Assembly (NCBI GenBank): GCA_051942245.1
Contig: JAVECL010000017.1
Coordinates: 1 to 64,000, forward strand
DNA: 64,000 nt
Source: Trypethelium eluteriae
Taxonomy: Eukaryota
Direction: 5' to 3'
Of this stretch, positions 12,615 through 64,000 are shown in pieces (positions within the stretch are counted from its first letter, which is position 1; each line of letters opens with the position of its first letter). The notes under the pieces were generated by a model. The model was given only the letters and a program-made list of their open reading frames with translations. It was not told where the DNA came from and searched no databases. Both the position numbers and the translations under genes were made by a program.

Positions 12615-13450
12615 ATGGACTTGGCCCCCCATCCTCCCTTAGAGGCCGACCGACTCCCAATCGATTCATCGCACCATGACGGACTGCAGGTAATTTCCCC
12701 CGCCGAGGTCTATGGTTTATACTGGGACTAACTTTCTGGGGTGCAAAGGCGAATAGTTTTCCCCCTGTGGATACGTCTGGCTCATTGCCATCCACGTCCG
12801 CGGTGCATGATCTCTGCAATTCAAATACAAACAGAGACCTCAATGAGCAGCAGCGTTCCCAAGGACGGTTTCCCTCCCCAACGAGGCGAATACTCGAATC
12901 TCGCTACAGGGAGAGCCCAAAGCTAGACAAACATAGACGGGAGACCATCCGGGTAGAAGCTGGTCTTCAAAATGAAGATCAAGTTAACAATTGGTTCAAG
13001 AAACAGCGCAAGAGAGAGAGAGATGCACAAGGTGGTGCCACTCATGGAACCGATCCTACAGTGCTAGCGAGCAATGCAAGTCTCCCACTGCAGAATTTAC
13101 ATGGCCGTTCTCAAGTTGACGTGAATTCAAAGGCCTCAAACCAAAACTTCGATGAGATTTTGGCTGACTGGGAAGCTCTGAGACAAATCGAGAGCATGTC
13201 ACAGTATCCCTTGACTGACCCAAGCTTGCTAAGTTCGCTGATGCCAATGACTTACGAACTTGATACCGGTTCTATCATTGACTATACATCTAGTAACGCT
13301 GATATGTCGGCGTCGATGTATGACAATGTGAGGTTCGGCCAAGATCCAGTCAGCGATTTCAATCCAGCGGCTTTTCCCGATGGCACTCTACAGCGCAACG
13401 GAACCGGGGAAATGTATCAAGGTTTCGACTGTGGCTCGGGTCATGGCTAG
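12615..13450 (+). CDS. Divergent homeodomain protein
   Basis: Exon 1 12615-12689, intron 12690-12748 (GTAATT..ACTAAC..AAG), exon 2 in frame with ORF 12767. Contains RFPSPTRRILESRYRESPKLDKHRRETIRVEAGLQNEDQVNNWFKKQRKRER, a homeodomain-like helix pattern. Confidence 0.7.
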
Positions 13451-15522
13451 TCTATGCCGCCATCCTAGACTACTCAGCCAGGGGTGCAGCCGTGTTTACC
13501 ATCGCAATGAGCGTGGTAGTGCTTGCAATCATGATTGGGTTTCGCAAATCTAAACTGCTATACGTCGCACTACACATACTGCCTCTATTTACAAGTTTCT
13601 CTACTCTCAGTCTCTATGAAATACACAGAAGGGTCGGCGCTTCTGTACTAGCAGTTATCTTGTTCAGTCTTCAGACTTAATTCAGGTTGGATGGATGGGC
13701 GCTTTCAGGAGAAAATTATTCCTTTGGGTTGGATGATGATTGAGTAAAGCTTATGAAGAATGAATAGTCCAATAACTTAACATTCGGGCTCTTTTGATAG
13801 GTTAATCAATACATACTTGAGTTACCCCGGAGCTTCGCCATCTCTGCCTTTACTTCTAGGCAGCGCTTGTATTACGGTCATTGGGCTCTGTGCGTTGAAT
13901 TTGGTCTTCTAAACCAGCTCAACACGCGGATCAAGGCACATCCAAATGCTGCTCTGTCGAGATGTTAGTAAATGGATACAGGATAGTCCATCAAGTCGAA
14001 CTGCGAGGGGTTACGTATTTGCCCTTTCAGCCAGTCCAGTTTGCTAGGCCTGTGAAGCCACCACTCCAGTCCAAACAGTATCATCAAGTTGGTCAATGGC
14101 ATGCAATGATTCGGAAGATTGACCGAGAGCCGAGGGCCCCGGAGGGTGGCTGCATAGCTTGCTCTGACAATAACCCACAGACGCCCATGCCAAATATCTT
14201 ATTGACGTGGCAACAAGTCGTTCTGCCGGTGTGGAACAAAGTCCGTAACAGGGGTAAACGAGGTTGCTGCTGTGTAACATGGGAGATGGAGAGCTCGAAC
14301 CGGGTATCTGGATCCGGAGTTACATGCAATCATCATTCCCTGACATTCTCGCGGCTTTGAGTAGGTAACTTTGGCGACCATCCGGGACCCCCAGACCTTC
14401 CGTCCAACCCCTTTTGTCTGATAGAATATCCCAACGAAACCCTCACTGCAATCTTCGAAATATCATCCATCCTTCTCATCCACAACTCACCTTTTTCCTA
14501 TTCAAGGAAAGCGCGTACCGCTTGGTTGATTTCATGTCGCTGTTGATCCCTGACAGCATCAAGCAGCTGCAGTACTGGGAAGCTGTAGCCTCGTCGAGAG
14601 ATATCGAAGAACCTTTGCATCGACGGTGGACAGCTTACCTTTTTCCAGTGAAGGAGATGGGGATTTAGTCGGCTTTCGGCAAGGCTACAATCTGTCCTTT
14701 GACAGTGCGATGCCCACTGGAGGACCTTCCCTCCACCGACCTATTCTGGCGGCAACGTTTCCGGCATGGTCTTGCTCTTCATGGCGTTCGAGAAGAAGCA
14801 CTAGTGACTACGCGAGCGCACAATTTTCCACACTTGTCGCCTACAGGCGTTGCATGCTCCAACAGCATGTCTCTTGTATCTCTTGCCCGACTGTTCCCTT
14901 CCTCTCGATGATGGCGATGATGCCACGGAATGTAGGTACAATGCCTAGCCGCCAGATGCTGCGCTAGGGTATGCTTGTGGGGTGTAAGTCAGATGGAGGC
15001 ACAGGCCGTGCGGTCCGGCCATGCGGGGACGATGCGCGGTGTGGGTTTGTGGCCTGAGCGTCACTAGCGCCACTAGCTTCTAGCCCTCTATCTCTTGCTT
15101 CTAGCTCCCGAGCTTAGCTTTCTAGCTTCACCACCAATCGATCTGTTCTGGGTCCTGTTTTCTCTCTCCACTCACGTGTTCACGCTTCAGCGGTAACGGC
15201 CACTTTCGCCAACCCCCCGGCACAACATCAACATTTACGCCCCTTACCAAGTTAACTACCTTCTTCGACAGTATATGAGTGCAGAGAATCGCAATCTGGT
15301 CAGCCAACGACGGATCGAGTATCAGCCAAGACAGTATAGATTTATCGGCTGGGCACTCGAACGGGTTGTCTCATATTTGCGCGGTCGTCATGGGAGTATG
15401 TAATTATTATTCTAGAGAATCGACATTGCGATTCGCTCTTTGGGACGACCTGTTCTCGCTTCGATAGGTTCGATATCTACTGTAATATATATTATGTGCT
15501 AACAGATTGTTTTCCTAATAAT

Positions 15523-15654
15523 GGGCTCGTGGTCTAACGGTAAGCAATCAAAGGATTACATGTTTGACTACGTGTAGTCGCTAATATATAGTGATGTAGG
15601 TATGATTTTCCCTTAGCATGGGAGAGGTCGAGGGTTCGACTCCCTCCGAGTCCA
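15523..15654 (+). tRNA. tRNA-Ala(AGC) interrupted in the D-loop by a 60-nt GT-AG insert (15540-15599)
   Basis: Removing 15540-15599 gives a full cloverleaf: acceptor GGGCTCG/CGAGTCC with the G3:U70 Ala identity pair, anticodon arm TTCCC-TTAGCAT-GGGAG (AGC at 15615-15617), T-arm GAGGG-TTCGACT-CCCTC and discriminator A73. Confidence 0.93.
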
Positions 15655-15662
15655 TTTTTTTA
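15655..15662 (+). terminator. RNA polymerase III oligo-dT terminator
   Basis: Run of 8 T immediately after A73 of the tRNA. Confidence 0.85.
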
Positions 15663-16305
15663 AAGTATAAATTTTTTTTAATCGCATTGTATCTTTCGGG
15701 TTTTATCTTCGTGCTTTCTAAACATAAGATAGCTCTAGAAATATCATTGTGTGTAGCTAGAATGCAAGAGAAAGCTCAAGCTAAGGAAGGCTGCACACAC
15801 TCACACAACATCGCTCTTGTCTAAAACCTCTCATGCTACAAGAAGAGACAATTCCTATTTTGTTCAATCTGGTTTTTTCTTTGTATCTGAAAACTTTAAA
15901 GTAGACATTTGATGAATACGTTCGCCATGCGTAGATTGTAGATAATTTCCCAATACTGAGAGATTATTACAGGGATGATCGTTGCGCTGGGGATTCTGGG
16001 TGTGGATTTGCCATGTGCGGAAATTGGTTCTCGCTCGGTCAGATTTTGATACGGGGTGTTTGTCGCGAAAGTAAAGAGAAACCGTGCAAAGTAGTTGCCC
16101 GAAGCTGTCCGAATTTGTTGACGTCTGGAAATTATCTAGCACTGCGAAGTCTATAGACGGCTTGTACAAATTTCTCACTTAAAGACTGGTCGACTCAACT
16201 GGAAAGGGCAAGTGACAATACAGAATTTCATGGATGCACTCTTCTATAGAGAAATCTGAGGTAGCCTTGCGGCAATAATAGTGTGACTTTCAAAATCGTT
16301 TCACC

Positions 16306-17088
16306 TCAGTTATGAGGAGGCCGGATCATGTATCTAAATATGGACTGGCCCCATTTTCGATCTGCATAAACTGGACATGGCCCCGGTGAAAACTCGTCTA
16401 GATCTACTTGCAAACTCTCCGCAACCTTGAAGCCATTTTTAGCAAATGCTCTGTGACCCGATTCAGATGATTTCACCCAGCAAAATACCGCGTCAGCGTC
16501 GGCTCTTGCTGTTCCCCATCCGATGAGCGCAGATCCTGCCCCACGGGACTGATATGATGGATGCACAACGAGTGCGACAACATACATACACATAGTACCT
16601 GGCGGCATCACCTTTATCATCCATTGCTGCAGATGCTCACTTGTGAGTGACTCAAGTTGGTTGATTGGGTCTAAAGGTTCTCCCGACTGCAAATTATGTT
16701 TTGGCGGTCGGATCAGCTTCGCTACATTGTCTAGCTGATCTTGTCTCGAAGTCTGTGCCTCACGTATTAGCGCTGCGGCATGTTTCTCGCTGGACTCCTT
16801 CCTCCGAGATCGTTCAGCGTCATCTTCATACTCGCGAGAAGCCCAACAAATCCAACCCAAAATCTGCTTTGTAGCAACGTCTGTGGCTTTGAGAACTGAA
16901 TATCGCGAATGGTCCTGTATCCAGGAGCTTATTGCTTCTCTCATCCCATTCGCAAATCTCTCATTGTTCTGGCCCATCGTCTTCATTTGCGTATGTACGT
17001 CGTTAGCAAAACCGTCCATGAACACGCTGGTAAGCAAAGTCACGTCTTCAGCTATCGCACTTTCGATGGTGAGAGCAGAGTCTGCCAT
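16306..17088 (-). CDS. GNAT family N-acetyltransferase
   Basis: LVVHPSYQSRGAGSALIGWG (Q/RxxGxG/A acetyl-CoA motif) and a C-terminal SSESGHRAFAKNGF. ATG chosen at 17088. Confidence 0.85.
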   Translation of the reverse strand: MADSALTIESAIAEDVTLLTSVFMDGFANDVHTQMKTMGQNNERFANGMREAISSWIQDHSRYSVLKATDVATKQILGWICWASREYEDDAERSRRKESSEKHAAALIREAQTSRQDQLDNVAKLIRPPKHNLQSGEPLDPINQLESLTSEHLQQWMIKVMPPGTMCMYVVALVVHPSYQSRGAGSALIGWGTARADADAVFCWVKSSESGHRAFAKNGFKVAESLQVDLDEFSPGPCPVYADRKWGQSIFRYMIRPPHN

Positions 17089-36037: not shown

Positions 36038-39000
36038 ATGGGATCGAGAACTGAATACGGTCGTCGGCTAGTACCCAATGTCATCGATGAGATCGCATGC
36101 AAGGATCCCCAACGCGAGGCTTTCCAGATTCCACGATCAGATGATCCGAAGGATGGATGGAAAGCCATCACTTTCAACGACTACGCAAATGCAATCAATC
36201 GCAGTGCCCTCGAGATTTTCGAGACCTGTGGCAAAGCCGCAGAGGACAAGTTCCCGACCATTGCGTACATTGGTCCTCAAGATGCGAGATACGTGGTAAT
36301 AATGGTCGCTGCTGTCAAAGCCGGCTACAAAGTAAGTCCGGTCAATGCCATTGCATTTTCAGTACAGTCATAAATGTCAATAAACAGGCACTGTTTATAT
36401 CTCCCAGAAACTCGCAAGAAGGTCAGATAAACCTCTTCGAGCAAACGAAATGCCACATCATAGCCTTTCCTCAATCCCACCACGCCATGGTCCAGCCTTG
36501 GTTGCGGGAAAGAGACATGAAGGCTGTCGAAGTCGGCTCTTTTGAGAGTTGGTTCTCAAAAGAACAGGTGCCTCACGTTCCTTATCATAAGACCTTTGAG
36601 CAGGCTGAATGGGAGCCGTTTTGTGTTCTGCATACTAGTGGTAGTACTGGCCTTCCAAAACCCATTGTCGTCAGACCGGTACGTGTTTCACATCTTTTCC
36701 CATCAAGCTTCCAAGTTCAGTGGTTAACAGGATGACTGAAGGGAATGCTCGCTATTTGCGATGCCTATCATAATTTCCCCAACTGGCAAGGCTACACTCA
36801 TTGGGTTCGCGCGTGGACGGAGAGATCCAAACGACATTTCACCCCTGTAAGCTCGAATTCACAAATCGTGTCAGTCCTCGGAGTCTAAAGCTTTAAAAGA
36901 TGCCTTTATTCCACGCAGCCGCTCTATATGTTTTCATTTTTTTTGTTGTCTACTGGGAAAGCCCTGTCGCCTTAGGAATCCCCGAAAGGGCACTATCCTC
37001 TGACTTAGTTGTCGAGTGTCTAAACAACATGGATGTTGAGTGCGCGGCTCTGCCTCCTTCTGTTCTTGAGGATATGAGTCAGAGTGAGGAATGCATCGCC
37101 GCACTGAAGAAGCTGAAACTGGTTGTCTTCGGAGGTGGTAAGTGGAACCATTAACGAATATTGGTGTTGTTTACTCACTGTCATAGGCAATCTTGTCCGA
37201 GAAGCTGGGGACAGGCTAGTGAAACACGGGATTATTCTCAACAACACTGTTAATTCCACTGAGTAAGCTAGATTCATGCATAGTATAATAGCTGTAGACT
37301 CACATTTGACAGATTTGCTCCATACCCAGTGTATTTCCAGCCAAGGATCGAGCTGTGGCAATATCTTATCATCAACTCTGATCTGTTCGGTTGCGAGTGG
37401 CGCAAGGCAGATGATGACGTGTACGAGCTCGTCGTCGTGCGCAAAGACAAACAGCCAGGCCTACAAGGCTTCTTCTACACATTCCCAGACCTAAATGAGT
37501 ACAGCAACAATGATCTCTACAAGCCCCATCCGACGCTGCCCGACCACTGGATCTACTATGGCCGTGCCGACAATATTATCGTATTTTCGAACGGCGAAAA
37601 ATTGAATCCTGTCACGATCGAAGATATTGTCCAAGATCATGCGCAGGTCAAGGGAGCTCTGGTGGTAGGCTCAAATAGGTTCCAGCCTGCCCTCCTGCTT
37701 GAACCTTCCACGCACCCCAAGGGTGAAACGGAGGAATGCGAATTTATCGACAGTCTGTGGCCGCTTGTGGTGCAAGCCAACAGCGAAACAGTAGCTCACG
37801 GCCAAATTGGCCGAGATTTTATCGCTATTTCAAACCCGGACAAGCCCTTCGTCAGGACTGGAAAGGGTACAATCCAGCGAGCTGGCACAGCTAAGCTCTA
37901 CGCGGACGAAATTGATCGACTCTACGAGAATGCGGAGCAAGGATCTCATTTTGGAGCGCCGCAATTGGATGTAAGCTCTGAAGGATCGTTGATCGAATCG
38001 ATCCAAAAAACGCTCGAATCACACGTGCACGCATCAAGGCTCCATCCAGAAACCGACTTCTTCTCGGCGGGCATCGATTCCTTGCAGGCCATGAATGCGT
38101 CGAGGCTCCTCCGGGCAGGTCTGAAGGCTTCCGGCTATGCCGCTGACTCTACCTCGCTAAGCGCCCGAGCTGTCTACAACAACCCAACACCTCGTCGGCT
38201 TGCCCAATACATACTCCGCTCAATCATCCACGGAGGAGGAGCTGTAAATCATGAAGATGAGGAGAGGCACGAAGTCCAAGTCATGAAGGCGCTCCACGAG
38301 CAATACACCCGCGACCTCATCCAAGCCAAGCCCGGCCGTCCCAATCCCTCCACCCAGAACCAAACCGTCCTACTAACCGGCTCAACAGGCACCCTAGGCT
38401 CCCACCTCCTCGACCAGCTCGTCCGCCACCCCGCCGTCCACAAAATCATCTGCCTCAACCGGGCCGCCGACGGCGGCGCCACCCAGCAAGCTTCAGCGAT
38501 GGCCTCGCGCGGCCTCGCACCCCCAACCTCGTACGCCGCCAAAACCGAATTCCACCACCTCGACGCATCGCAGCCCATGCTCGGCCTCTCCGCAGACGTG
38601 TACGCTCGGCTCCTCAGCGAGGCAGATCGCATGATCCTCGCCGCCTGGCCCGTCAACTTCAATCTCTCGACCGAGGCGTTCACGCCGTCCCTGCATGGCG
38701 TGCGCGGCTTCGCGGACTTTGCGGCAGCGGCGGAGAAGCGGGTTGCCGTTGTGTTCGTCTCCTCGGTGGCGACGGCGGAGCGCTGGGAGCCGGGGAGAGG
38801 ACCGGTGCCGGAGGAGAGGCTCGACGTCGACGATGGTGATGATGGCGGCGGCTGGCGGCTCCCGAGTAATGGCTATGGGCGCAGCAAGATGGTTGGCAGC
38901 TTGATCCTTGAGGAGGCGGCGAGAGTGGGAGATTTCCCCGCGGCATCGATTCGGGTGGGACAGATTGCTGGGCCGGAGGCGGAGGCGGGAGCTTGGCCGC

Positions 39001-39503
39001 GCCAGGAGTGGCTGCCGAGTTTGGTCGCGAGCAGCTTGTATCTGGCGGCTTTGCCGAGAGAGCTGGGCCGGGTTGATCGCGTGGACTGGACGCCGGTCGA
39101 GCGCGTCGCCAGGCTGGTGTTGGATGTGGCCGGGGTCGTCCAGCATGCTAAAGACGCGAGAGAGATCAGCGGCTACTTCCACGGCGTCAATCCGTATGCG
39201 ATTTCCTGGCAGGAGCTCGCTCCGGCGGTGCAGCATTTCTATGGGGGCCGTATCAAGGAATTGGTCAGCTTTCAGGAGTGGGTGGGCCGGCTTGAGAAGA
39301 GCCAGACGGATGATGCGAAGGCGATCGATGCTAATCCGGGTCTCAAAATCCTCGACACGTACCAAGCTATTGCCCGTGACTCAGATGCCAAACCTGTCAT
39401 CTTTGATATGCAACGTGCAAATGCCACGAGCCCGGCGATGAAGGAGGCTGGGGCTATCACGCCGGAGCTAATGAAGCATTGGTGTACACAGTGGGAATTT
39501 TAG
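36038..39503 (+). CDS. NRPS-like A-T-R enzyme (carboxylic acid reductase type)
   Basis: A domain HTSGSTGLPKP, PLFHAA, DLYKPHP and GRADNIIVFSNGEK. T domain DFFSAGIDSL. R domain TGSTGTLG, YGRSK and RVGQIAG. Five GT-AG introns in the 5' part, all restoring frame. Confidence 0.93.
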
Positions 39504-43889: not shown

Positions 43890-44776
43890 GCTCTCATTGG
43901 ATAGTGATGGCCACGGCCCTAGCCAGCATGGACTATGACAGGCTCCGAGCGTCTAAGCTTGCTGAGATACTCTCTCCGCTCGGGGCAAATCAGTACAGAA
44001 CGTGTACCAGCCTTTGAAACAGCGCTTTCACAGCATGACTATGGCTTCTAAGCACCTTGCTCATGATTTGCCCCGCAAAATTGGCGCGTCCATGTTGAAA
44101 TGTTGAGCGTCGTTACTAAGCCAGGTAAGCTAGAGTACAGGCACTGGCAGGCGCCAAGGCTCAAACGGGTACTGTAGATGTATTTTAGGAGGATTTGCAT
44201 CCCTCTTCATCCAATTCAGGCGATCAGAGACGCCTGACTCGTTTCAGCTTGACAGGTGAAAATCTACTCATCGCACTAATTGGAAGATACCGTAAACGCC
44301 TGGAGGCTAGATTTAATCGCACGATACCAAATAACATTGTTCAACTTGGGAACGGCTGCTACTGCTTATCATTCACTAGGTATGTATGACGACTTCTAAC
44401 TCGTCGAAACTGAGATATCAATAGACGGAATCAGACAAAGGCAGAAGCGCTATATCAGGCTCTCTATCAGGCATAGTCATTTATTTTGTCAAAGTCTACC
44501 CCAGGCACCATTGGTATTGTAACCGCCGCAGACAGCATGTTGTCACGAAACATTTCGCGATTCCATTTCTTGTCGCTCAGTTCCTACCCGAAAATCTATT
44601 CTTGCAAGACAGATAAATCGATGAGCATTTCTAACATCCAACACATTATTACAGCCTACGTCGCGTTGAGTAAGCCTTCCAGCACGCTATACATATACCA
44701 AATCACCCATTGATTTGCCTTTGCGCTGCTACTGTGAGCGGATTGACGCACCGTTTGTCTTCTATATCTGTCCGCC

Positions 44777-47700
44777 ATGTCTTTTGTCCTCCCATATCCA
44801 ATCGGTTCCGACAAAGAGCCAATTATTGTCCCATACCTTGTTAAAGAGCCGTATGACTACACCAATGCTTATGGCTATAGAAACTTTCCCGCCAAATGTG
44901 GGATTTCAGTGGTTAACGGTCACTTCGATCCCACTATTCCCCACGATGACCTTGCTGCGCTTATGCAATCATGGCTCTACTTTGGTCTGATCGACGAGGT
45001 TCTACAAAAGAAAGTCTCCCCGCATCTGAGTCTCGATATTCGGCTTGAGTCACGCCTGTCTGACGAGATTCGGGAATTTAAAAGTCATTGCCTCCATTTC
45101 GACTGGCCTGGATGGATGAAGTCTCTAGTAGACTCTTCCTACCGGGGCAATCGTCTTCTTTTTCGAGAGAGTGTGGTCCCTCTCGTGTATGCGGTAAACC
45201 AGAATCTCCCTCATCCCCACATGACCTGGCGTCTCTCGCGTCGTGAAGAAAACGCTCGTGACTTGGGGCCATATTCGTCCCGCCAGAAATTGCGGATTCA
45301 GACGTGTCTTAGTGACGCAGAAGAGTTTTTTTCTTTATTTGATAATGTCAACGGCGCGGCAGATTCCAATCTTGCGAGCGTAACTCTGTCAGTTGCTATC
45401 CTTATCAGCTACTTACGGTCTGTCTGCAACTCGAAGACATTTCTCTCGCGACACTCAGTACCAATTCATGGGACCAATGATAAACAGTCGACCTGGAATG
45501 TATTTCGACCATTGCAGAACCCTCAGGGATCCCTCACTGCTAAGCTGTTACTCGCGCGCTTTCAGCAAAGTGGAAGATGCACATGGCGAGTCATAAAGGA
45601 ATTCCCCAACCTGGATTCGATCTCGCTTTATTTTCTATCTTCTGTGCGATCAAATCCACGTCTGAATCAACATAACCATTGTTCGAGTGCCGCATGCATT
45701 TGGAACATCGGAAGACGACAGGAAATCAATGCAAATGCTTCCAGTGGCAAAGCTCGCCATCGCTCCGAGGGATGCTCATGCAGAGCCGTTGAATCACCCA
45801 TTGATCGCGTTACTCAGCTCATTCAGAATGGCGATATACCGCTCATGTCTATCACCCGTGATACGAGTCCTACATGTCAACTCAAGCTTGATGTCATCAA
45901 GTATCATAGCTCCCACATGTATACCGCGATATCTCATCTTTGGGCAGACAGGAATTTGTGCTCTGTAGATGGCCTGAACAACTTGTATGAATGCCAGCTC
46001 GACCACATTGATACATCGCTAGGAAAGCTGTCAGAGGGTTATTCTGTTGCTGCCACCGGCTCTGGCATGGAATCTGGAAGCTCCAATCGACATTTGTTCT
46101 GGCTAGACACACTGTGCATTCCTGAACTGCAGACTGGCCCAAAGAAGAAGGCGATCAACATGATGAATGTTGTATATTCCTGTGCCAAGGAGATTTTAAT
46201 TCTTGACGACGAGCTGCAAAATCTATACCCCAGAGTAGAGAGGATACCAATAGACCGAGGAAAGGGCAGAGCAATGTTCCTCAGCGCACCTGCTCTGAGT
46301 CACCTACTGACTATCATAGCCCATGTAACTCTTTCGGATTGGGCAGGTCGAGCTTGGACATATCAGGAGAGCCGTCTTGGTCAACAATGTTTTGTTCAGC
46401 TTGGAAACTCTCTCGCGATCCTTGACGACAACATTCTCACATCGTATGCCAACCGTGATGCCGATACATGGATAGGGCGTTCGATTTCTAGAATCTGGAT
46501 ACACGAGCTGGTGAATTTTGTGCACGACTTGTTCCGGTTTCTGAAAAACCTAGGTCTCGTAGAGAAGCTCTCATACACTTGGATTGCTTTCTATGTGGCC
46601 TTAGACCATATACTAGCAGTAGTAGTGAGGCTGTTTGGCCCATTCCCATTTCGCGTATTCGCGAAACAGATCATCAAGAACCAGGTTTTCAACAATCCGG
46701 TCTGGCTTGCACAAGAGCATCGAGAAAACTGGGGATACTACTACGTGTATGACGATCTGTATACCAAAGTTGAGGGCTCTTTAGAAAAGCTTCACCCCCT
46801 TTTCAGAAAAGTTAAAAGCAAGGAAGAACGGTTCATTGCCATTTGGAATGCCCTTTCTGGACGATCGACTACAAAACCGGAGGATCTCCCTATCATTATC
46901 GCAAACCTCATAGGCTTTGAAACAAAGGACATTCTTAACATCCCTGACAGTAGCGAAAGGATGCGACGAATATTACTGAGTTTCGAGTGGCTTCCTGTAA
47001 GCATTATGTTCGTCAGCGGCGAGAAATTGCGTGATAAAGAATCACACGGAGATAGCTGGATACCCTGTGCACCTGAGGACACTCTGTCCTACTCCCAAAA
47101 ATACTTGACCAACTATGTAAGCATTACTAAAGATGCTACTACCCTGGAGGTTACAGATGACACCTTGTACCAGCTCGATAACTTAAGTCATCATCAAATC
47201 ACCAACTTCAACTTGGTGACAATCGGTTCACCAAATAATAGTGTCCAATCAATGGAGGTGCAGTCCAGTTTCCATGTGGAGAGTCTTGCGGTCAAAGCGA
47301 CACAAAACATTTCTCCACGGACAGATGATCTTCAAGAGTCTCAAGTCCACTACTTATTACTGGAAAGAACTCTACCACAAAACCGAGCAGAAGCCCTCGA
47401 CAGCATCAAGGGCGCAGTCTTTCGGTGCCATAGTAGCGACGATACGAATATGCTTCTACAATACGAATGTGCAGTCAGGGTGACATTACAAAATGCAGAA
47501 ATGGAGAAAACTCTACCAACCTCTATCCTTAAAAGACCTGGAAGAAGGCGGAAAGTATCTCTGATACGCGGTATGTTCGGACGTCTCTTTAGCCTGCCCG
47601 TACTAATCTAGATGTTCGCAAAGGTTTTAGCGAGTACAACCGACTGCCAATCCAGCTTTCGCCTCTAGACCCACTTAATTTCGCCCATGAGATATGGTCT

Positions 47701-60466: not shown

Positions 60467-63400
60467 ATGGCACCTATCGCAGTCGCAGAACCATATGCAT
60501 CAGAGGCTTTAGAGCCTGTCGCCATAATCGGCATGGGTGAGTTCCTATCTTCCGAAAGAACGTGATTTGTGTATCTCTGATAATTGTGTGTTAGGGTGCC
60601 GATGGCCCGGTGATTCGGAGTCTCCTTCTGAACTATATGACTTCCTCGAGGCGAAGAGGAACTCTTACAGCAAGTTTCCAGCGGAGAGAATCAATGGAGA
60701 TGCATTCTATCATCCCGATGGAAACAGACCAGGCTCCTTCAAAACAGAGGGAGGCAGCTTTCTGAAGTCAGATGTGCGGAAGTTCGATGCAAACTTCTTC
60801 GGAATCCATCCGAAGGAAGTTCTTACCTTAGACCCTGCCCAGAGAAAGTTTCTAGAGGTTGTCTATGAGGCTTTCGAGTCTGCAGGCATTCCTCTTCACA
60901 AATTGAACGGCTCCAACATTGGGACATTTGTGGGGAACTTCAACTACGATCACCAGTTAATGCACTATCGCGACCCGGAGAATGCGTTACCGTACTCTGT
61001 CACTGGTAGCGGTATCACCATACTTAGCAACCGCATCAACTACATCTTCAATCTCAAGGGCCCTTCTATGACTCTGGACACAGCTTGTTCGAGTTCCCTC
61101 TACGCACTCCACCTCGCTTGCTCGGCGATTCAAACTGGAGATTGCACAGCTGCAGTCGTCGGAGGATCGAATCTAATTCTGACTCCAGAGTGCCAAATCT
61201 TTTCATCTGTCCTGGGAGCTGTTTCGCCTACTTCAGTCTGCCATACCTTTGACTCACGCGGTTAGTGATGACGTTAATTCATTAGTTCATTGGAAAAGTC
61301 ATTAACATCATCTAGCGGATGGATATGCTCGTGCTGACGGGATTGGTGCGCTCTTCATTAAAAAATTGTCCCAAGCAATAGCCGATGGCGATCCGATTCG
61401 TGCAGTGATTCGAGGCACATCATTCAATGCGAACGGTCGAACGGGTGGGATCACCCATCCTAGTCCTGATGGCCAAGAGGCTTGCATGCGACGGGCGTAT
61501 GAGCGTGCCGGTGGTCTGGATATGTCACTCACAGGTTATTTTGAATGTCATGGAACCGGGACTCCTGTTGGGTAAGCAACAAATTAATCTAAAAAAAAAA
61601 GGGTACAGTGGTAATGGCATCAGTGATCCTATTGAAGTGTCCGCCATCGGAAGATTGTTCGCCGACGCGAAGAGCTCTTCAAATCCGTTGTTAATTGGAT
61701 CAATCAAGTCCAACATGGGGCATAGCGAGCCATCTAGCGGTATTGCAGGGATTATGAAAGCTGTGTTAGCAATAGAGCGAGGTGTCATTCCACCCACGAT
61801 TGGCATCGAGACTCTAAACCCGAATGTTGACTTGAAGGATGGCCGACTGAAGATCGTTACCGAGAGCACGCCATGGCCAGATCTACCGGTTCGAAGAGCA
61901 AGTGTCAACTCTTTCGGATATGGAGGTTCAAATGCACATGTAAGCGCTCCGATGGATTCTTTTTATGTACCGTCAAGATCTAATCAGGGTAGGCCATCAT
62001 TGAATCTGTCGAGACGCTCTTACCTGGATACAGGTCACATCACCAGGCGAGCAAAGAATCTTCCAGTATCGAAGCCTTCGCCAAGGCAAACGGAATGTCT
62101 CAGGGACCGTTGCCTCCTGTGACGAATGGTCGAGTCAATGGCCATATCAATGGTCATACCAACGGCCATGTCAATGGTCACGCCAATGGCCACGCCAATG
62201 GTCACGCCAATGGTCACATCGATGGCAATGGCCGTGCTCAACTCAGCGGAAACAATGATTCTATGATCAATGGAAATGGTTATAGGTCAAGGCCAACCAA
62301 GGACCGTTTCCTCCTCCCATTCTCGGCGCATGATGAGAAGACACTACAGGCCAATTACGATGCGTTAGCTAAATCCGTTACCAATTGGGACTTGATGGAT
62401 GTTGCGTTCACCCTCAGTGCTAGGCGTAGTTTACTAACTTACCGGTCGTTCATTATAACGAGCGTCAACGAGGCCGAACAAGATCTCCCAGAAGCAAAAC
62501 TAAGCATCGCGAAGAAACGTTCCGCTGCCACCCCGGTTCTTGGTTTTGTCTTCACTGGACAGGGCGCTCAGTGGCCTCAGATGGGGAAATCACTCATGAA
62601 AGAATATCCGAGCTATCTAGCAACAATCCGGAGACTCGACAAATACCTTGACGATCTTGATGAAGCCCACGGCCGAGACTGGAGTATCGAAGGAGTCATG
62701 AATCAAAGTCCGGAAGAAAGTCTGGTCCACAACGCGGAGCTTTCGCAGCCTCTAGTGACTGCATTGCAAATTGCGCTTGTTAATCTAATTTCTCAGTGGA
62801 ATGTGACGCCAAGCGCCGTTGTCGGCCACTCATCTGGTGAAATCGCCGCCAGCTATGCTGCAGGCTTACTGACTGAAGAAGAGGCTATGATCGTAGCTTA
62901 TCTTCGAGGAAAGACACTCGCGCACAACAATAAAAAGGGATTGATGATGGCTATTGGTGGCCACCTCTCCGAGATCCAACCTTTGGTGGATGAATTTGAC
63001 GGCCAAGTCACCATCGCGTGCCATAACTCCCCAGAAAGCTACACATTGAGTGGAGATGCCGACGCAATGGTTCGACTCAAGGAAGTCTTCGACGAGAAGA
63101 AGATCTTCTGTCGTACACTCGTCACAAACAATAACGCCTACCACTCGCATCACATGAAAGCTCTTGGTCCACAATACGAATCGGAGCTCGAGTCTTCCAT
63201 GCCTAAGAGCTCGGCTGTCAAATCTCTCAAGCAAAGTTCAAAGAGCCGTTCTGTCCAAGCTGTTTTCTTCTCATCTCTCTATGGTCACGCCGCACCCTGG
63301 TCATTGCTAGGTCCTAAGTACTGGCGCCAGAACCTTGAGTCTCCGGTACTATTTCATCAGGCCGTCGGGGAAATGGTCTCGCAGCTACCCGTCGATATTC

Positions 63401-64000
63401 TCATAGAGATTGGGCCTCATGGGGCACTCCAAGGACCTCTTCGACAGCTGTCCAAGACGATGGACAAAGATATCAAGTTTCCCGAGTATCTCACGGCTAT
63501 ATTCAGGGGCAATGACAACGTGAAAGATGTCCTTTCACTCGCGGGTAACCTTTTCAATAAAGGCTATGATGTTGACCTCGCACGTGTCAATGCCATTGAA
63601 GGCAGAGGAGGGAACCAGTACCAATTTGGTAAGGTCATCACCGACTTGCCTCAGTATCAGTGGCAGTATCCAAAGGAAATCCTCCTTTATGAGAATCGCT
63701 ACACTCGGGAATGGCGATTGCGCATGCATCCGCGTCATGATTATCTTGGGAGTCGCATTCCAGGTGCAAACAAGACCGAGCCAACATGGCGAAATATGCT
63801 CTCCATGAACAACGTCCCGTGGCTCACGGATCATCGCGTGAGTAGTCTTTCCATGTCTTCAAACGGAATCTGACATATTGTTATAGCTCGGAAAGGAGAT
63901 TGTGTTCCCCTCCACTGGCTACCTTTGCATGACCGTAGAGGCAGCTACTCAAGTTGTCGAGTTGGGAGGCTATAGTGCCACTGACGTCGAGTATTACGAT
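60467..64000 (+). CDS. Reducing iterative type I polyketide synthase (KS-AT-DH...), partial at window end
   Basis: EPVAIIGMG|CRWPG start. KS motifs DTACSSS, HGTGT and KSNMGHSE. AT motifs GQGAQW, GHSSGE and AYHS. DH motif WLTDHR|LGKEIVFP. Later domains lie outside the window. Confidence 0.95.
62124..62231 (+). repeat. Degenerate 12-bp coding repeat (NGHx)n in the PKS KS-AT linker
   Basis: AATGGYCAYRYC-type units encoding [36 protein letters not shown]. Confidence 0.85.

Follow-up and report, generated by a model that had tools for sequence, protein, structure and literature searches.

A putative spliceosomal-type intron in the D-loop of a fungal tRNA-Ala(AGC) gene

The sole U6 snRNA gene of Schizosaccharomyces pombe, which is transcribed by Pol III, contains an intron which the spliceosome excises, as related in the available text of PMC5855946 (citing Tani and Ohshima, 1989/1991). 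The same text describes unrelated U6 introns in many fungi, which number up to four per gene and carry canonical signals within otherwise unconserved sequence (PMC5855946, citing Canzler et al., 2016). It further lists spliceosomal introns in the U1, U2, and U5 snRNA genes (Rhodotorula hasegawae) and in ascomycete rRNA genes (PMC5855946, citing Takahashi et al., 1993, 1996; Bhattacharya et al., 2000). For tRNA, splicing that is independent of the spliceosome is given as the general rule in the accessible text of van Hoof et al., and pre-tRNA splicing is contrasted with the spliceosome in the accessible passages of Phizicky and Hopper (2023; PMC10275265). The string "spliceosom" does not occur in the available sections of Yoshihisa (2014; PMC4090602), and the portions at hand of PMC11146597 and PMC11782384 make no mention of a spliceosomal tRNA intron. 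A preliminary description of the locus discussed here knew of no earlier account of a tRNA gene with such an intron, and full-text literature searches, which leave most subscription journals outside their scope, likewise returned none.

The locus lies in a 64-kb window, which is the whole stretch of DNA that was analyzed. On the plus strand of this window, positions 15523–15654 hold a tRNA-Ala(AGC) gene in two pieces, with a 60-nt insert between G18 and G19. Exon 1 (15523–15539, plus strand) is 17 nt long and covers tRNA positions 1–18, comprising the 5′ strand of the acceptor stem, U8, G9, the 5′ strand of the D-stem, and the D-loop as far as G18. Exon 2 (15600–15654, plus strand) is 55 nt long and covers positions 19–73, comprising G19, the 3′ strand of the D-stem, the anticodon arm with its AGC anticodon, the variable loop, the T arm, the 3′ strand of the acceptor stem, and A73. 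The preliminary description had already placed the split at G18/G19 and the insert at 15540–15599, and both the coordinates and the 60-nt length are confirmed.

When the two exons are joined by script, a 72-nt cloverleaf results that ARAGORN calls as tRNA-Ala(agc). Among the 21 stem pairs of the joined tRNA, 20 are standard or G-U, the odd one being a U-U at 13:22, and all of the invariant positions that were checked are kept (U8, A14, G18, G19, A21, U33, G53, T54, T55, C56, A58, and C61). The features of a tRNA-Ala are likewise present, with G-T at 3:70 (G3:U70 in the RNA), A at position 73, and AGC as the anticodon. G3:U70 is the identity pair of tRNA-Ala and the basis of its recognition by AlaRS. 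A nuclear-tRNA cloverleaf is obtained solely after excision of 15540–15599; the unspliced locus gives no ARAGORN call. Two further statements made at the outset, that excision restores a complete cloverleaf and that the flanks are undecayed, hold up on these results, with the ARAGORN call, the 20 of 21 pairs, the invariant positions, G3:U70, and A73 on the one hand and intact tRNA exons and Pol III signals on the other. The D arm of the locus presumably resembles the tRNA-Pro or tRNA-Glu type, unlike that of the usual fungal tRNA-Ala. A run of four T is also present in exon 2 at 15606–15609 (tRNA positions 25–28), where the top of the anticodon stem is U-rich and the 27:43 pair is U-G.

In its genomic form, the gene is passed over by the programs that were run. 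ARAGORN reports no tRNA gene in the unspliced 64-kb window, and Rfam gives no match in the window at the gathering threshold, as had been anticipated when it was suggested that standard tRNA scanners would miss the gene. Under permissive settings, the Rfam tmRNA model aligns with the acceptor and T arms of the locus while skipping the middle, with a score of 23.5 bits where the gathering score is 47. By permissive Rfam and ARAGORN together, the split locus is the sole tRNA-like signal in the window.

The insert (15540–15599, plus strand) is 60 nt long with 65% A+T, lacks T runs of four or more, and is laid out in the form of a spliceosomal intron. Its first six nucleotides, GTAAGC (15540–15545, plus strand), fit the 5′ splice site GTRNGY, and the same hexamer opens two of the five high-confidence mRNA introns of the window. 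The branch-site motif CTAAT (15581–15585, plus strand) fits CTRAY, placing the presumed branch A at 15584 with 15 nt following it to the end of the intron, and the terminal TAG (15597–15599, plus strand) fits the 3′ splice site YAG. These are the signals that had been read at first sight, as a GTAAGC start, a GCTAAT at 15580–15585, and a TAG end, and all three are confirmed in the sequence. An earlier AG ends at 15591, only 7 nt past the branch A. AGs so near the branch A are usually skipped. This one could nonetheless compete as a 3′ splice site, in which case the product would be a non-tRNA.

Because GGTA stands at both junctions, the insert can be excised in five equivalent registers that leave an identical 72-nt product. 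Only one of the five, 15540–15599, begins with GT and ends with AG, which agrees with the initial argument that the GGTA repeat lets the boundary slide and that GT-AG fixes it at G18/G19. The likelihood of such signals arising by chance was gauged from 60-nt segments on both strands of the window, with GTRNGY at the start, CTRAY within 8–40 nt of the 3′ end, and YAG at the end. The full signal set occurs in 2 of 127,880 segments, one of which is the insert itself; with the five registers allowed, 10 of 127,870 five-register segments pass. The splice signals of the insert are non-random. Filler DNA would not be expected to carry them, and the insert either descends from a real intron or was kept spliceable. 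The fold of the insert, by comparison with its shuffles, is ordinary (−12.9 kcal/mol, z = −1.51), with 16 of 200 shuffles folding as well.

The mRNA introns of the window offer a local standard for comparison. These were defined as GTRNGY…CTRAY…YAG segments that interrupt a reading frame and whose removal fuses two open stretches, each of 70 codons or more. Five high-confidence introns are found, with lengths of 53–64 nt, GTAAGT at the start of three and GTAAGC at the start of two, and YAG at the end of all. A relaxed screen yields 15 candidates; several of these overlap as alternatives to one another, and those of 52–64 nt carry the same signals. At 60 nt, the insert falls inside the range spanned by the five high-confidence introns, and the early remark that it shares both signals and size with the mRNA introns of the window agrees with all five. 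In length, splice signals, and A+T content (65%), the insert resembles the ordinary introns of this genome. Judged by its sequence, it is very probably an intron of the spliceosomal type in form.

The window is that of a filamentous ascomycete. Read from their translations, the genes of the window include a polyketide synthase, an NRPS-like reductase, a HET-domain ORF, a GMC oxidoreductase, and MFS transporters. The NRPS-like reductase ORF, the long HET-domain-like ORF, and the polyketide synthase, split by short introns, are found at 37284–39503, 44747–47611, and 60528–63873, with names again taken from the translations. Such content is typical of the secondary metabolism and incompatibility genes of filamentous ascomycetes. 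A flavin oxidoreductase of the window belongs to a cluster that is 89% eukaryotic, in which Ascomycota is the commonest phylum. Of the ORFs with Pfam support, the nearest to the locus are one with a homeodomain, which ends at 13450 on the plus strand, and one of the GNAT kind, which ends at 16306 on the minus strand. The intervening stretch of about 2.8 kb (13450–16306) contains several open frames of 80–153 codons that have no Pfam match. Seven other ORFs between and around the two are without a Pfam family, and no recognizable coding gene is found that would host the locus.

Other classes of intron were also considered for the insert. A bulge-helix-bulge (BHB) intron was drawn in 80 ways, from five registers and 16 bulge placements, and in the best arrangement the central helix has 4 bp but the helices that flank it have only 1 and 0 pairs. 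With regard to an endonuclease-type (BHB/TSEN) intron in general, the insert lies at position 18/19 and not at 37/38, and there is no BHB at its junctions. No Rfam intron family matches the locus at E ≤ 10 or the window at E ≤ 0.5. A length of 60 nt is too short for the ribozyme core of either a group I or a group II intron. With an introner-like or other repeated mobile sequence in mind, a second copy of the insert was sought in the 64-kb window and none was found, the best other match being 10 nt long.

The promoter elements and terminator expected of a Pol III tRNA gene are present around and within the split gene. The A box, TGGTCTAACGG, occupies 15530–15540 on the plus strand, with its final G supplied by the insert. 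Since the insert begins with G, the A box is intact in the DNA; it had been proposed from the beginning that the A box survives the insertion, and TGGTCTAACGG does stand whole at 15530–15540. The B box, GGTTCGACTCC, occupies 15633–15643 on the plus strand and starts 92 bp past the end of the A box. A spacing of 92 bp between the two boxes is long, yet tolerated. A T7 run that would serve as the Pol III terminator follows directly after A73 (15655–15661, plus strand), and a second run, T8, lies 11 nt after it (15672–15679, plus strand) as a possible back-up terminator. On this point the preliminary description requires correction, as it gave the tRNA a T8 terminator, whereas the run at 15655–15661 is T7 and the T8 at 15672–15679 is separate; the latter is probably the source of the earlier figure. 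Upstream, an AT-rich, TATA-like stretch is found at 15483–15496 on the plus strand, 27–40 nt 5′ of tRNA position 1, and includes the palindromic TAATATATATTA at 15483–15494. This stretch may serve Pol III as an upstream promoter element. A sigma-70/terminator scan re-found the T arm and the T run, and nothing more.

Little can be read from the lack of T runs of four or more in the insert, as 3473 of 5000 of its shuffles lack one too. The T4 run of exon 2 (15606–15609) could act as a weak internal stop for Pol III, with read-through weakened as a result. In yeasts, efficient Pol III termination needs at least five T, a rule that may differ in this fungus.

The 132-nt precursor is predicted to fold with its acceptor, anticodon, and T arms in place (z = −3.14), and none of 200 shuffles folds as well. 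The acceptor-T minihelix is what RNase P and RNase Z use, and since the acceptor and T arms both form in the predicted precursor, this minihelix would be untouched by the insert. In the lowest-energy fold of the precursor, a structure with an ensemble frequency of 0.0075, the region of the 5′ splice site is paired. G18 and G19, between which the insert lies, contact the T-loop at the outer elbow of the L-shaped tRNA.

Sequences related to the locus were sought by pattern in metagenome, prokaryote-genome, and viral contigs. A pattern for the 3′ half of the D arm, the anticodon loop, and the variable region matches no stretch in any of the three. A pattern for the T arm and acceptor matches at least 119 loci in metagenome contigs. 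Among the 119 matches listed, 96 are ordinary bacterial tRNAs, of which 95 are tRNA-Ala with CGC, UGC, or GGC anticodons and one is tRNA-Arg, and the 23 without an ARAGORN call are 3′ fragments of bacterial tRNA-Ala or cuts at contig ends. Neither an AGC anticodon nor a split 5′ half is found among the 119 matches listed, so that this second pattern has no bearing on the question of relatives. As a separate observation, in at least 16 gut-metagenome loci a bacterial tRNA-Ala(CGC) lacks its 5′ half, and one of two conserved non-tRNA sequences precedes the remaining 3′ part (about 160 nt before the match). The sequence downstream is the same in all of these at least 16 loci. These 3′ parts look like the duplicated tRNA end at the junction of an element integrated at tRNA-Ala.

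The reading that we favor, with a probability of about 0.5, is that the locus is a nuclear Pol III gene for tRNA-Ala(AGC) whose D-loop holds a U2-type GT-AG intron, and that removal of this intron by the spliceosome would yield a working tRNA. Under such a scheme, TFIIIC would bind the intact A and B boxes, 92 bp apart, and Pol III would read through the 60-nt intron and stop at the T7 run, giving a precursor some 140 nt long. The acceptor, anticodon, and T arms would form in this precursor, with the intron jutting from the elbow of the L-shape. The spliceosome would then recognize GUAAGC, the CUAAU branch site, and UAG, and the intron would leave as a lariat, with …ACG joined to GUAUG… and the D-loop restored. 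End processing and CCA addition would complete the tRNA-Ala, which AlaRS would charge via G3:U70. In favor of this reading are the anatomy of the split gene, its non-random splice signals and their agreement with the local mRNA introns, the lack of a BHB motif, the intact Pol III features, the lack of a recognizable coding gene around the locus, and the precedent of fungal U6, a Pol III transcript from which the spliceosome removes introns. Against it count the T4 run of exon 2, the AG that ends at 15591, the pairing of the 5′ splice site region in the lowest-energy precursor fold, and the presumably unusual D arm. As to how the intron arose, we can only infer an origin by reverse splicing. 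It may also be that many tRNA-Ala(AGC) genes exist and that the split one is dispensable. Whether the locus represents one case of a wider, undescribed ascomycete habit of mRNA-type tRNA introns, with tRNA maturation that would depend on the spliceosome, is nearly an even question from what the sequence offers, and is judged slightly the less probable answer.

The main rival is that the locus is a dead copy, in which an insert derived from an intron, for example one that was reverse-spliced and retro-copied, recently broke a redundant tRNA-Ala(AGC) gene that gives no functional tRNA. Two variants of this account are that the Pol III pre-tRNA is not a substrate of the spliceosome in this fungus, or that the gene is silent. 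The dead copy is a serious contender, with the odds somewhat against it. The T4 run of exon 2 and the D arm, which we take to be atypical for a tRNA-Ala, speak in its favor, and a relative that shares the split turned up in none of the metagenome, prokaryote-genome, and viral scans (for the T arm in metagenomes, among the matches listed). Furthermore, D- and T-arm insertions in one of many synonymous eukaryotic tRNA genes are presumed to be pseudogenes in the available text of Yoshihisa (2014; PMC4090602), and reviews, in their accessible passages, place tRNA splicing outside the spliceosome. The undecayed state of the gene is equally predicted by a recent inactivating insertion, which would have left too little time for decay. 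Weighing against a dead copy, however, is that the invariant positions checked, both promoter boxes, the terminator, and the three splice signals are intact together. An insert that came from a real intron would, moreover, probably still be recognized by the spliceosome, which splices the Pol III transcripts of U6 in fungi. A donor copy of the insert is not found within the 64-kb window, a result that also counts against the dead copy but says little about the rest of the genome.

Efficient recruitment of the spliceosome would be explained if the locus were part of a Pol II transcript, either a long 3′ UTR or a non-coding RNA that is unannotated, in which the intron would be spliced co-transcriptionally and the tRNA then released by RNase P and RNase Z. 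In favor of such a transcript, the stretch of about 2.8 kb around the locus (13450–16306) is devoid of Pfam-supported coding sequence and contains several open frames that may or may not be coding. Given that a full Pol III set is present, with the A box, the B box, the T7 directly after A73, and then the T8, and that no host gene is recognizable around the locus, an origin from Pol II is improbable. The insert might instead be an intron of the endonuclease type (BHB or TSEN) that lies outside the canonical position, in which case the tRNA splicing endonuclease would excise it and tRNA ligase would seal the exons; non-canonical D-arm introns that are independent of the spliceosome do exist in some algae and nucleomorphs, according to the available text of Yoshihisa (2014; PMC4090602). 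That text, however, quotes nucleomorph introns of 3–24 nt, against the 60 nt found here (Yoshihisa, 2014; PMC4090602). None of the five registers allows a BHB, even a relaxed one, the insert is not unusually structured, and the spliceosomal signal set would have to be a coincidence at a rate of about 1 in 10,000 or less. An endonuclease intron is thus very unlikely, far down the scale of the readings considered.

If maturation of this tRNA by the spliceosome is true, its consequences would reach beyond the locus itself. Textbooks and current reviews, in the portions available, separate spliceosomal introns, which belong to Pol II transcripts, from tRNA splicing, which is carried out by protein enzymes, and this divide would be broken by a tRNA whose maturation requires the spliceosome. 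tRNA would join the substrates of the spliceosome, and the two splicing systems of eukaryotes would be linked in one class of RNA. The non-coding RNAs known to hold mRNA-type introns (U1, U2, U5, U6, and rRNA) would then extend to the most abundant product of Pol III, and the locus would serve as a natural example on which the gain of introns via reverse splicing into abundant RNAs could be tested. Since both ARAGORN and Rfam miss the gene, fungal tRNA gene sets may lack members in genomes that carry introns of this kind. Even as a dead copy, the locus would still record the insertion of an intron-derived sequence into a tRNA gene and bear on the movement of introns.

Among the described systems, the introns of fungal U6 genes come closest to the insert. 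Like it, they are short GT-AG introns with canonical 5′, branch, and 3′ sites inside a small, structured Pol III gene with internal promoter elements, and reverse splicing is their proposed origin as well, as far as the available text of PMC5855946 describes them. Here, in contrast to U6, the host is a tRNA, and exon 1 amounts to only 17 nt plus the leader. In S. pombe U6, splicing has been shown, according to the same text, whereas for the tRNA-Ala gene it is predicted from the DNA sequence. The argument from "proximity to the active site," which is made for U6, is inapplicable because a tRNA is not part of the spliceosome. The introns of U1, U2, and U5 snRNA and of rRNA, in the account accessible in PMC5855946, resemble the insert in being of the spliceosomal type and lying in fungal non-coding RNAs, including RNAs off the catalytic center. 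They differ in that other polymerases and classes of RNA are involved, with Pol II for U1, U2, and U5 and Pol I for rRNA, and none of the hosts listed there is a tRNA.

In Cyanidioschyzon merolae and in the nucleomorphs of cryptophytes and chlorarachniophytes, nuclear tRNA genes are cut in the D arm, as is the locus described here (PMC4090602, available sections). The BHB motifs that are critical for the endonuclease in C. merolae are, however, lacking from the insert, which instead carries GT, branch, and AG signals (PMC4090602, available sections). Canonical introns at 37/38, which are handled by TSEN and tRNA ligase, likewise resemble the insert in that they must go if a functional tRNA is to form, but differ from it in position (18/19 in the present gene), in recognition signals, and in the presumed machinery. 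Ultimately, fungal genes for non-coding RNAs are already known to harbor spliceosomal introns, and what would be new here is a tRNA as the host of one.
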